Origin: Candidatus Omnitrophota bacterium
GTDB taxonomy: Bacteria; Omnitrophota; Gorgyraeia; Gygaellales; Profunditerraquicolaceae
Direction: 5' to 3'
Length of the DNA: 64,000 nucleotides
Assembly (NCBI GenBank): GCA_022710715.1
Contig: JAKLGJ010000001.1
Coordinates: 170,041 to 234,040 of the forward strand
A program made the translations under genes and the position numbers. Below the pieces are notes generated by a model. The model had not been told where the DNA came from. It did not search any database and worked only from the letters and a program-made list of their open reading frames with translations. Positions 3,427 through 6,145 of this stretch are shown here, piece after piece; position 1 is the stretch's first letter, and every line of letters starts with the position of its first letter.

Positions 3427-4102
3427 TGATTGACCGCAGTAGTTGTAAAATTTGGCTATATGCTGGGAAATCCTGTCAGGCCGGCAGTACGTCTGTCTTT
3501 AAGACGGAACGTGACAATCTGCCGGATAGGGACAATCAGCAGGAAAGACCTGAAGGAGGTCTCCGTGAAGATAGAAACAGGCTATTACTTAGCTGGTTTT
3601 GCGGATGGGGAAGGGAGTTTCAACATATCCTTTCGTCCGAGGCAAGACTATAAATCACCATGGAAAGTTTCTTTGTGTTTCAATATCTCTCAGAAAGATA
3701 AAGTTATTCTTGCATTGTATAAGCGCTATCTAGGCTGTGGAACATTGCGAGGCAGGCCTGATGGAGTCTGGTACTTTGAAGTGAATAATTTCGAATCGAT
3801 CAGAGAGAAAGTAATACCTTTTTTTAGAAGGTATCCATTTTTATCAGCTAAGAAAAAAAGAGATTTCGCAAAATTCTGCGAACTCGCGCGGTTGATTAAA
3901 AATGAGAATCACCTGACAAAAGAGGGGATTAAGAAAATACTTGAAATACGAAGAGATATGAATGATGGTGGCAAACGCAAGTATAGCGAGATGGAGATCT
4001 TAAGCAAGCTTCAGGAATCCTCAGAGACTATACGCCAAACTCCTGGTCAATCAGGAGATGATATAGTCCGGTCTTCCGGGAAACCGGAAGTTAACATGAA
4101 CG
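3427..4102 (+). mobile_element. Group I intron #1 in 23S, inserted after ...GTAACTAT (E. coli about L1917); carries a LAGLIDADG ORF
   Basis: Exon collinearity with E. coli breaks between GTAACTAT and AACGGTCC. The 5' exon ends in U and the intron ends in G. It contains the group I P7 strands (TCAGAGACTATACG at about 4020-4035, GATGATATAGTCC at 4060-4075) and a P9-like hairpin GGTCTTCCGGGAAACCGGAAG. Confidence 0.8.
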
Positions 4103-4113
4103 AACGGTCCTAA
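3565..4113 (+). CDS. LAGLIDADG homing endonuclease (single-motif, about 182 aa), intron-encoded; start probably GTG 3565 (the ORF frame is open from 3430)
   Basis: Motif YYLAGFADGEGSF (LAGLIDADG) near the N-terminus, preceded by SD AGGAGG 5 nt upstream of GTG. The reading frame runs through the intron P7/P9 core and 11 nt into the downstream exon (stop TAA at 4111-4113). Confidence 0.75.
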   Translation: MKIETGYYLAGFADGEGSFNISFRPRQDYKSPWKVSLCFNISQKDKVILALYKRYLGCGTLRGRPDGVWYFEVNNFESIREKVIPFFRRYPFLSAKKKRDFAKFCELARLIKNENHLTKEGIKKILEIRRDMNDGGKRKYSEMEILSKLQESSETIRQTPGQSGDDIVRSSGKPEVNMNERS

Positions 4114-4116
4114 GGT

Positions 4117-4308
4117 TAACGTAATAACGCTAGCCTGCTTGGTAGTAATACCAAAGAATAATTACCAACTATATCGGTGAAGTCCTCGGTTGTATAGAGG
4201 ATAATACCGAGGGAAGTCGTAAATGACCCCGTAGAGACTACACGTTGGCTCCTGCGTAAAGCAGGATGAAGATATAGTCCACGCCAATAGTAATATTGGA
4301 TTAACGTG
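4117..4308 (+). mobile_element. Group I intron #2 in 23S (ORF-less, 192 nt), inserted after ...CCTAAGGT (E. coli about L1931)
   Basis: Exon AACGGTCCTAAGGT (4103-4116) is followed by 192 nt absent from E. coli, then AGCGAAATTCCTTGT. The 5' exon ends in U and the intron ends in G. P7 strands CGTAGAGACTACACG and GATGAAGATATAGTCC are present. Confidence 0.7.
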
Positions 4309-4878
4309 AGCGAAATTCCTTGTGGGGTAAGTTCCCACGCGCACGAATGGTGTAACAACCTGATCGCTGTCTCAAAGAGGGACTCGGCGAAATTGTAGTG
4401 GCGGTGAAGATGCCGTCTACCCGCATCAAGACGAAAAGACCCCAGAACCTTTACTGCAGCCTACCATTGGGTTTTGGTTTAATTTGTGTAGCATAGGTGG
4501 GAGACTTTGAAGCCCGGGCGCTAGCTCGGGCAGAGTCGCAATGTGAAATACCACCCTGATTGGACTAAAATTCTAACCTTCCGACCTGAATCGGCCGGGG
4601 GGACAGTGATAGGCGGGCAGTTTGACTGGGGCGGTTCCCTTCTAAAAAGTAACAAAGGGGCCCAAAGGTTGGCTCAAGTCGGTCGGCAATCGACTTAGGA
4701 GTGTAAGCGCATAAGCCAGCTTGACTGCAAATCCGACAGGACGCGCAGGTACGAAAGTAGGGGCTAATGATCCGGTGGTGAAATGTGGAATTGCCATCGC
4801 TCAACGGATAATAGGTACTCTGGGGATAACAGGCTTATCGGGCTCGAGAGTTCACATCGACAGCCCGGTTTGGCACCT

Positions 4879-5297
4879 CAACATCATGGGGTGGTACGGG
4901 AGCAATCCTGTACATGCATTGGCTAATAACGGTGGAGTCTTCTCCCGGCGCACGCGCCGGGATTGATAATACCGTGGGAAGTCTGCAGAACATAAGCAGT
5001 TATTTCAGTGGTCTTTTCTCTTGGTGACAAAGTCTCAATCGATAGGTCTAATACTTTGATCTCGAATACATACACTAATGGATGGTTCAAAGTTATTAGG
5101 ATGTCTTTTGCTGTTCTTTGCTCATCATGAGAAAGCCATGTTCTGTATGACCCCGTAACGACTGATAGTACGGACGCACGATCCGAGCGTTATACGTACT
5201 TGAGATAGCAGAATGTGTTGCTATCATACGCCAACTCCGCTTACTGCAAACGGAAGAAGATATAGTCTAATCCCATCCGAAAGGATGGACAAGATTG
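4879..5297 (+). mobile_element. Group I intron #3 in 23S (ORF-less, 419 nt), inserted within GGCACCT^CGATGTCGGCTC (E. coli about L2499)
   Basis: Collinearity break inside the conserved peptidyl-transferase-centre sequence. The 5' exon ends in U (4878) and the intron ends in G (5297). The 3' core GAAGAAGATATAGTCTAATCCCATCCGAAAGGATGG (P7 plus P9 hairpin) lies just before the 3' splice site. The AT-rich interior has no intact ORF. Confidence 0.7.
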
Positions 5298-5401
5298 CGA
5301 TGTCGGCTCATCCTATCCTGGGGCTGGATAAGGTCCCAAGGGTCCGGCTGTTCGCCGGTTAAAAGGGTACGCGAGCTGGGTTCAGAACGTCGTGAGACAG
5401 T

Positions 5402-6145
5402 AAATTGACCGTTGCTGTCTTTAAATCTGGCTATGTGCTGGAAAATCTGAGTATCTCATATTACTAATTGACGAAATAGTCTCTACATGATACTATGCAG
5501 TCGGGAGTGATAATATATGAGTGCAGATCACCAGCAGGAAAGGCCAAGCGGGATAGCATCATTCTATGTCAGTGGTTTTGTCGACGGAGAAGGCTGCTTT
5601 TCTATAACAATTCAGAAAAGTAAAAATGTGAAATTAGGGGTACAGGTTATTCCCGAGTTTCACGTCAGCCAACATCAACGCAGGACTGAAGTTCTTGAAG
5701 CAATCAAGGGTAAGTTTGGTTGTGGCTATATCAAAGCAAACAATCCGAATAACCCCAAAGATCTTACTTCAGTATACGTTGTTCGTAATTTAGCTGATCT
5801 TCGTGATAAAATCGTGCCGTTTTTTAAGAAATATCCTTTGTATTCGTCAAAGCAGCAGGACTTTGAGAAGTTTGCAAAAGTCGTGCATGCTATGAGTAAA
5901 AAGGACCATCTTGAAAAGAACGGTTTAAGCAGAATATTGAAACTATCATTCTCGATGAATGACAGCGGTAGGTATCGTAAACTGAAAATAGAAGATGTGC
6001 TGTCCAGTTTGGAATCCTCAGAGACTATACGCCAGAAGCTTGCTGTAAAGCAAGTTTAAGATATAGTCCGAACTGCATGGCGACATGCAGAGATTGGCAG
6101 AAATGCCCAATCCTTTTACATGACAATGTAGAAGTAACATAATTG
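5402..6145 (+). mobile_element. Group I intron #4 in 23S, inserted at CGTCGTGAGACAGT^TCGG (the I-CreI-type L2593 site); carries a LAGLIDADG ORF
   Basis: Break exactly at the classical L2593 homing site. The 5' exon ends in U (5401) and the intron ends in G (6145). Intron start AAATTGACCG resembles intron #1 start TGATTGACCG. P7 strands TCAGAGACTATACG (about 6018-6031) and TTTAAGATATAGTCC (6057-6071) are present. Confidence 0.8.
5517..6059 (+). CDS. LAGLIDADG homing endonuclease (single-motif, 180 aa), intron-encoded
   Basis: Motif FYVSGFVDGEGCF with ATG start and SD GGGAGTGA upstream. The C-terminal ...SSLESSETIRQ is encoded by the same 24-nt P7 core sequence as in intron #1. Size and architecture resemble I-CreI-family homodimeric enzymes. 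Confidence 0.8.
   Translation: MSADHQQERPSGIASFYVSGFVDGEGCFSITIQKSKNVKLGVQVIPEFHVSQHQRRTEVLEAIKGKFGCGYIKANNPNNPKDLTSVYVVRNLADLRDKIVPFFKKYPLYSSKQQDFEKFAKVVHAMSKKDHLEKNGLSRILKLSFSMNDSGRYRKLKIEDVLSSLESSETIRQKLAVKQV

Follow-up and report, generated by a model that had tools for sequence, protein, structure and literature searches.

LAGLIDADG endonuclease genes that extend into the ribozyme core of two 23S rRNA group I introns of an Omnitrophota bacterium

The 23S ribosomal RNA (rRNA) gene of a Candidatus Omnitrophota bacterium (GenBank assembly GCA_022710715.1, contig JAKLGJ010000001.1, positions 170,041 to 234,040; this stretch of 64,000 nucleotides (nt) is the window, in the coordinates of which all features are given) is interrupted by four group I introns, and the first and the fourth of these encode LAGLIDADG homing endonucleases, denoted here HE-1 and HE-2. 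Both open reading frames (ORFs) sit in the loop L6a and extend from it into the ribozyme core. With a probability of about 0.85, these are ordinary mobile group I introns with endonuclease genes in L6a, the ends of the ORFs having sequences that are dictated by the RNA.

Intron 1 (3427-4102, 676 nt, on the + strand, as are the other introns, their ORFs and the ribosome-binding sites) is inserted at L1917, and intron 4 (5402-6145, 744 nt) at L2593; they end in the omega-G at 4102 and 6145, respectively. The boundaries were set by comparison with the bacterial large subunit (LSU) rRNA model of Rfam, in which the insertion corresponding to intron 1 measures 677 nt, combined with reading of the sequence. 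Compared with this model, the 23S rRNA gene contains large insertions after the Escherichia coli equivalents of positions 1917, 1931 and ∼2500, and intron 4 directly follows GAGACAGT, that is, position 2593, where the ligated exons match the E. coli 23S rRNA. A first-pass annotation of the window had assigned introns 1 and 4 to L1917 and L2593, and the LSU alignment and the sequence agree on both sites. The 3' part of the group I core (P7/P3'/P8/P7'/P9) was found by Rfam in all four introns, with bit scores against the Intron_gpI model (RF00028) of 34.0, 58.6, 27.4 and 43.6 for introns 1, 2, 3 and 4, respectively (E-values of 2.9e-6, 2.8e-4 and 3.9e-9 for introns 1, 3 and 4); the gathering score of 50 bits is passed by intron 2 alone, the other three falling beneath it. 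Four separate metagenome assemblies contain contigs that match the window at 100% identity over up to 6.5 kb, and therefore, the arrangement is not an assembly artefact.

The HE-1 ORF (3565-4113) runs from GTG to TAA and encodes 182 amino acids, and the HE-2 ORF (5517-6059) runs from ATG to TAA and encodes 180. Shine-Dalgarno sites had been proposed for both and can be recognised in the sequence. HE-1 has AGGAGG at 3554-3559, with 5 nt separating it from the GTG, which abuts and overlaps the 5' strand of P6a (3549-3555), and HE-2 has the Shine-Dalgarno-like GGGAGTGA at 5503-5510, the GGAG of which ends 9 nt ahead of the ATG; the 3' end of the 16S rRNA in the window contains CCTCC. In the closest relatives (L007, L008, L019, L024 and L033), AGGAGGTCTCC is retained ahead of an ATG or GTG, and in the alignment of the L2593 relatives, (A/G)GGAGT occurs in those that start at the ATG of HE-2 and is absent from those that start downstream. 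The frame of HE-1 is also open upstream, from 3430, and a longer protein starting from TTG 3430 or ATG 3460 (217 amino acids according to gene callers) was considered but rejected: the extension covers P3-P6 of the ribozyme, and the ATG of the relatives aligns with GTG 3565, downstream of AGGAGG. A hairpin AGACCT/AGGTCT (3546-3562) that would mask the HE-1 Shine-Dalgarno site was discarded as well, being paired in just 39% of cases across 56 relatives and thus unconserved.

Both proteins had been described as single-motif LAGLIDADG endonucleases, and a Pfam profile search yields precisely one above-threshold domain for each. The LAGLIDADG_1 profile (PF00961, gathering cut-off of 23.1 bits) matches HE-1 with 75.8 bits (E = 5.6e-21) and HE-2 with 98.8 bits (E = 3.8e-28), in one stretch in either case, and the motifs are LAGFADGEG and VSGFVDGEG, respectively. 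In an alignment of 32 relatives, the motif aspartate (D14) hardly varies, and Q43 and K96 do not vary at all; when HE-2 is aligned with I-CreI, the motif aspartate falls opposite D20, and the conserved glutamine corresponds to what we take to be Q47 of I-CreI. Among sequences of solved structures in the PDB, the individual domains of the I-OnuI, I-PanMI and I-SmaMI family are matched by both HE-1 and HE-2, as are the single-domain I-TnaI (5gkk) and I-Vdi141I (3e54). The AlphaFold2 model of HE-1 (mean predicted local distance difference test score, pLDDT, of 82.5, with 111 residues above 90) shows the alpha-beta-beta-alpha-beta-beta-alpha core, and Foldseek pairs it at a probability of 1.00 with I-TnaI, I-Vdi141I, I-CeuI and halves of the I-OnuI family. 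The folded domain is predicted to span approximately residues 1-150 of HE-1 and 14-166 of HE-2.

The start and stop positions of these ORFs vary across relatives, and introns 2 and 3 of the same gene lost, or never had, an ORF, as could be expected if the endonuclease genes were decaying, inactive relics and the run-on ends the first sign of decay. This explanation is improbable given that both ORFs are intact, the columns of the catalytic aspartate, glutamine and lysine are conserved, and the identical sequence recurs in four independent assemblies. Furthermore, homologues are numerous (thousands for HE-1 and 2873 for HE-2), and many of these are 70-90% identical to HE-1 and HE-2 and evolve under clear purifying selection. 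In the body of the ORFs, the entropies of the three codon positions are 0.83, 0.55 and 1.55 bits, which indicates purifying selection on the protein.

The RNA is constrained as well. Base pairs at the named helices were counted across 56 complete L1917 introns, obtained in one species-genome scan, and 26 complete introns at L2593, most of which came from a single scan of metagenomes. In intron 1, P1 is formed by the exonic AACUAU with GUAGUU (3439-3444) and P10 by GACCG (3432-3436) with the exonic CGGUC, followed by P3 (3451-3456/4034-4039), P4 (3461-3465/3537-3541), P6 (GG 3542-3543/CC 4019-4020), P6a (CCUGAAG 3549-3555/CUUCAGG 4009-4015), P7 (4026-4032/4062-4068, within the R/P7 element 4022-4032 and the S/P7' element 4062-4068), P8 (4040-4057) and P9 (4073-4090); the part of the core that is read by the HE-1 ORF extends over 4009-4102. 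In intron 4, the identified elements are P5a (CUCAUA 5455-5460 with UAUGAG 5516-5521, the 3' strand of which contains the ATG of HE-2), the 3' strand of P5 (5524-5527), P4' in the Q element (CCAGCA 5531-5536), P6 (GG 5537-5538/CC 6016-6017), P6a (CCAAGC 5544-5549/GUUUGG 6007-6012) and, within the 3' core (6007-6068), R/P7 (6019-6029), P3' (6031-6036), P8 (6038-6055), J8/7, which contains the stop codon of HE-2 (TAA 6057-6059) just upstream of the S element, and S/P7' (6062-6068). Among the L1917 introns, pairing amounts to 100% in P1, P4 and P6, 99% in P3 and P9, 94% in P7, 92% in P8 and 90% in P6a, with many compensatory exchanges in P3, P6a, P8 and P9. Among the L2593 introns, P1, P3, P4, P6, P7 and P9 are 100% paired, P5 95%, P6a 89% and P5a 95%, the latter with compensatory changes; P8 (60%) and P9.2 (52%) lie in a poorly aligned part. 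Thus, the P, Q, R and S elements form P3, P4, P6 and P7 with 94-100% pairing in both sets. A U.G pair marks the 5' splice site in 56 of 56 L1917 and 26 of 26 L2593 introns, and the terminal intron G is present in 81 of 82 (55 of 56 and 26 of 26, respectively). The ribozymes at both sites are constrained and presumably active.

The two ORFs overlap this core at three ends. HE-1 is located in L6a because this is where the helix layout of intron 1 puts the ORF, and its last 35 codons traverse P6a', P6', J6/7, P7, P3', P8, P7', P9 and the 3' splice site. The claim of the first-pass annotation that the 3' parts of both ORFs are encoded by the ribozyme core stands, with P7 and P3' crossed by HE-1 and HE-2 alike, as does the claim that HE-1 continues for 11 nt into the exon: the intron ends with G4102 and the stop codon TAA ends at 4113, so that 11 exon nucleotides are used, the stop included. 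The same ending, 11 nt into the exon, was found in six of the 56 complete L1917 introns, and among the top protein matches, most of the closest relatives of HE-1 end in ...N(I/M/T)NERS. Unlike these 3' overlaps, the overlap at the 5' end of HE-2 had gone unnoticed. It covers P5a, P5', P4', P6 and the 5' strand of P6a (5516-5549) and encodes MSADHQQERPS, codons 2-11 (SADHQQERPS) being derived from P5', the Q element with P4', P6 and the P6a 5' strand. Some L2593 relatives (L114, L116, L118, L123 and L126 among them) have no ATG in P5a and start in L6a, and of the ORFs that pass the R element, some stop before the S element and others after it.

How the R element is read by the ORFs bears directly on the nature of the core-encoded peptides. 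Among 76 L1917 ORFs, 11 stop before R, 47 read it as (E)SSET(I/V)R, 9 as ENPQR(L/P)YA and 1 in the third frame, with R not located by pattern in 8; the corresponding numbers for 59 L2593 ORFs are 11 (one a truncated ORF), 43, 1, 1 and 3. In other words, ∼15-20% of the relatives stop ahead of R, and ∼10% of the L1917 relatives use another frame; the loci with ENPQR(L/P)YA in place of ESSETIRQ include L045, L048, L049, L051-L054, L068 and L112. In the SSETIRQ codons, the entropy of the third positions is only 0.24 bits in the L1917 set and 0.40 bits in the L2593 set, compared with 1.55 bits in the body of the ORFs, where even the 20 codons that are best conserved reach 1.2-1.3 bits. The third positions of the tail are as conserved as the first and second positions, or more so, as is characteristic of selection on the nucleotides rather than on the amino acids. 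In the AlphaFold2 models, pLDDT falls below 50 at residues 152-182 of HE-1 and at residues 1-13 and 167-180 of HE-2, and these segments are essentially the core-encoded pieces of the two proteins. In a tblastn search, the endonuclease proteins match even the ORF-less intron 3, over its R/S core alone.

The first-pass annotation had proposed that a single sequence is subject to dual constraint, as RNA structure and as protein. The RNA part of this proposal is borne out by the covariation and the near-invariance of third positions; at the protein level, no constraint on the tail is evident in view of the ORFs that stop before R, the use of other frames and the pLDDT below 50 in the tail. In the strong form of the proposal, the ESSETIRQ tail would have a function in the endonuclease, such as binding DNA, contributing dimer contacts or contacting RNA like a maturase, and the 24 nt that encompass it would be selected both as RNA and as protein. 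Residues S153, E154 and T155 are indeed invariant in the 32-sequence alignment, which includes both families, and where translation continues through R, SSET is the frame in 47 of 57 ORFs at L1917 and 43 of 45 at L2593. Nevertheless, such dual coding is unlikely because 11 ORFs in each family (with the one truncated L2593 case) stop before R, 10 L1917 members read R in another frame with the domain still intact, the third codon positions are conserved like the first and the second, the tail is predicted to be disordered, and the solved I-TnaI structure and I-OnuI halves align no further than residue ∼135-150. The core-encoded peptides look like a tolerated appendage, the sequence of which is dictated by the RNA, and the most parsimonious explanation is a drift of start and stop codons into the core and out of it again, the resulting peptide being tolerated.

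The longest identical block shared by the two introns falls in the same region. A 24-nt identity had been reported previously, and the block is real, although its coordinates were off by one and the string quoted had 23 letters: GGAATCCTCAGAGACTATACGCCA occurs at 4014-4037, where it spans P6a'/P6'/J6-7/P7/P3' of intron 1, and at 6011-6034 in intron 4, both on the + strand. It is a maximal identical block, with two matches in the window compared with 0 expected from 100 shuffles. When the conservation of each position was compared across 124 relatives, every variable position of the 24-mer was found to carry the majority base of the family, so that the block is the consensus throughout. The identity reflects the conserved R element.

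The same annotation had raised the possibility that introns 1 and 4 are paralogs that arose by duplication. A recent duplication within the genome, or gene conversion between the cores, could account for the identity at 24 of 24 positions, which is found in just 0.3% of cross-family pairs (the median is 20 of 24); two other genomes that possess both introns show 21 and 22 matches. Moreover, identity over the first 50 nt reaches 71% between introns 1 and 4, compared with 43-47% for the other intron pairs, and the two introns share the P10 guide TTGACCG (3430-3436 and 5405-5411). However, the identity ends abruptly at both edges of the block, and the endonuclease domains of HE-1 and HE-2 are only 31% identical, which is the level seen between any two site families (32-37%) and far below the 62% and 50% identity within L1917 and L2593, respectively; therefore, these are not recent duplicates. 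The nearest L2593 relatives of intron 4 already match this 24-mer at 23 of 24 positions, so that one substitution is enough, and all of its variable positions hold the family majority base. Taken together, these comparisons make a recent duplication or core conversion very improbable and unnecessary, a very short conversion tract being conceivable.

Introns 1 and 4 are related in a deep sense only. They have in common the insertion point in L6a, the GGAAAG(A/G)CC...AAUCC frame of P6/P6a and a similar 5' core, and the 3' exons at 4103-4110 and 6146-6153 (AACGGTCC and TCGGTCTC) both contain CGGTC. This likeness of the L1917 and L2593 target sites could have facilitated a transfer from one to the other long ago; more speculatively, the shared TTGACCG and CGGTC may be the traces of such an ancient jump, made by a single intron lineage.

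These observations can be accommodated in a simple scheme in which introns 1 and 4 belong to the bacterial and organellar lineages of 23S rRNA introns at L1917 and L2593. The endonuclease, presumably a homodimer, would cut an intron-less 23S allele at the insertion site, the intron would be copied into the cut allele during repair, and the ribozyme would then excise itself from the pre-rRNA. Start and stop codons have drifted from the loop into the flanking core helices, so that the 13 N-terminal and 14 C-terminal residues of HE-2 and the 31 C-terminal residues of HE-1 are translated ribozyme. Under this scheme, both ESSETIRQ and the 24-nt identity would be dictated by the RNA, namely P6'/J6-7/P7/P3', and the core-encoded peptides would be tolerated and probably disordered appendages. 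Translation and a folded ribozyme are likely to be mutually exclusive on one RNA molecule because the ATG of HE-2 lies in P5a, the Shine-Dalgarno site of HE-1 abuts P6a, and both ORFs cross P7 and P3. A more speculative corollary, which we regard as a long shot, is that HE-1 terminates properly only when translated from the unspliced pre-rRNA because its sole in-frame stop (TAA 4111-4113), like that of its closest relatives, is exonic; the dosage of the endonuclease would then be tied to the precursor as a built-in brake. If so, translation of HE-1 from the excised intron would be a non-stop event subject to rescue by transfer-messenger RNA. The stop supplied by the exon thus raises the question of the translation template, precursor or excised intron.

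Several points weigh against the interpretation of introns 1 and 4 as ordinary mobile introns with RNA-dictated ORF ends. The Rfam scores of both (34.0 and 43.6) are below the gathering score, probably because the ORF loop of ∼450 nt breaks the model, so that the 3' half alone aligns. The SSET frame predominates, and besides descent, a degree of selection on the peptide could be responsible. A low pLDDT is no proof that a tail is functionless, and the C-terminal tail of I-CreI is reported to be important for DNA binding. Finally, we infer splicing, cleavage, dimerisation and translation alike.

Relatives of HE-1 were found in at least 550 species genomes in the genome scan, across many phyla that include Omnitrophota, Elusimicrobia, Acidobacteriota, Gammaproteobacteria, Planctomycetota, Chloroflexota, Nitrospirota, Thermotogota and the Candidate Phyla Radiation (CPR); the closest relatives that bear a name belong to Omnitrophota or Velamenicoccus. 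In seven of the loci, the L1917 element is accompanied by endonuclease-bearing introns at L1931 and/or L1951, and 16 of the 41 loci that reach position 2593 contain the L1917 intron alone, according to a coarse motif search with some false positions. Mobile introns typically show such a patchy distribution. The biology is ordinary, one further case of a class of rRNA introns that has been published and is very widespread, uncultured bacteria included. What is added here is the 5' overlap of HE-2 with its ATG in P5a, the translation of R in different frames and the RNA-dictated character of the terminal peptides. The practical consequence concerns annotation: M(S/G)ADNQQERP, ESSETIRQ, ENPQRLYA, DDIVRS and NINERS are translated ribozyme core rather than protein motifs, and such peptide ends are unfit for defining endonuclease subfamilies or ORF boundaries.

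The rRNA operon (the 3' part of 16S, tRNA-Ile, tRNA-Ala, 23S and 5S) occupies positions 1-6723 of the window. Its two remaining introns, intron 2 (4117-4308, 192 nt) at L1931 and intron 3 (4879-5297, 419 nt) at L2500, contain no ORF. The exon between introns 1 and 2 (4103-4116) is only 14 nt long and contains the HE-1 stop codon, which lies 3 nt upstream of the 5' splice site of intron 2; on this short exon, P10 of intron 1 has to form and so does P1 of intron 2. Intron 3 includes ∼200 nt of extra sequence (about 4950-5150), and its R-like element is GCTATCATACGCCAA, the usual form being CAGAGACTA. A degenerate endonuclease gene in intron 3 was considered but rejected: translation in all six frames and a tblastn search with 242 proteins of the family revealed no remnant of the domain, the match being confined to the R/S core (E = 0.002). 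Immediately downstream of the operon, an ORF of 1313 amino acids (7056-10997) starts with a sequence that resembles a signal peptide and contains three tandem repeats of ∼120-130 amino acids each (PVTMPVIPGTGSTDANGN...KFDPKYDGKT...), with only faint matches to tetratricopeptide repeats.

Among the characterized single-motif homodimeric LAGLIDADG enzymes, I-CreI of the Chlamydomonas reinhardtii chloroplast 23S rRNA gene shares the L2593 site with HE-2, and its local target is nearly the same (GTCGTGAGACAGTT). The prediction that the specificity of HE-2 can be derived from I-CreI is correct with regard to the site but not to the DNA contacts, which are not transferable at 23% identity over 111 residues (pairwise E = 8e-9), the C-terminal third being unaligned; I-CreI is not among the PDB matches listed for HE-2 (60 of 93). 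Only the general target of HE-2, the intron-less junction at L2593 (GAACGTCGTGAGACAGT joined to TCGGTCTCTATCTGG), can be suggested from the sequence; the equivalent junction at L1917 is GGCGGCCGTAACTAT joined to AACGGTCCTAAGGTAGCG. The closest solved single-domain structure is that of I-TnaI, encoded in an intron at L1931 of the Thermotoga naphthophila 23S rRNA gene, that is, also in a bacterial 23S group I intron. In phmmer searches, it matches HE-1 with E = 6.8e-20 and HE-2 with E = 5.4e-30, and in Foldseek, it aligns with the HE-1 model at a TMt of 0.83, a root-mean-square deviation of 1.4 Å and 33% identity. I-TnaI differs in its site and hence its target, and aligns with the domain alone, without a counterpart of the core-encoded tail.

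In a survey of the CPR (PMC11270868), LAGLIDADG_1 ORFs were reported at 23S positions 1917, 1931, 1952, 2593, 2604 and 2657, and for one of the enzymes, I-ShaI, dimerisation and cleavage of the insertion site were demonstrated. I-ShaI belongs to class 23IS7 (the second of 23IS6-8, which we read as position 1931), not to 1917 or 2593, and the host examined here is not a member of the CPR. The overlap of ORF and core constitutes a recognised class of group I introns (reviewed in PMC3984707, Fig. 2b); according to this review, expression must be controlled so that folding stays undisturbed. As in that class, the ORFs of introns 1 and 4 are placed in a peripheral loop and continue into helices of the core; the best-studied cases of the review, however, are phage introns in protein-coding genes, such as that of I-TevI, whereas here the host gene encodes an untranslated rRNA.

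The closest precedent is provided by the 23S rRNA introns at L1917, L1931 and L2593 of Synechococcus sp. C9 and S. lividus C1 (Haugen et al. 2007, PMC1995217), each of which contains a single-motif LAGLIDADG ORF (introns of 743-748 nt, ORFs of 159-189 amino acids). The L1917 ORF of Synechococcus begins in P6 and passes P7, P3 and P8, and its double role as RNA and protein was noted by the authors. Thus, the layout of intron ORF and core is not new but was published in 2007. The gene and the sites are the same, with several introns per 23S rRNA gene, and the introns of 676 and 744 nt described here are of comparable length, as are their ORFs. Nevertheless, the Synechococcus L1917 ORF stops in P9, whereas HE-1 continues via P7' and P9 to an exonic stop, and in the Omnitrophota host, a fourth intron is present at L2500.

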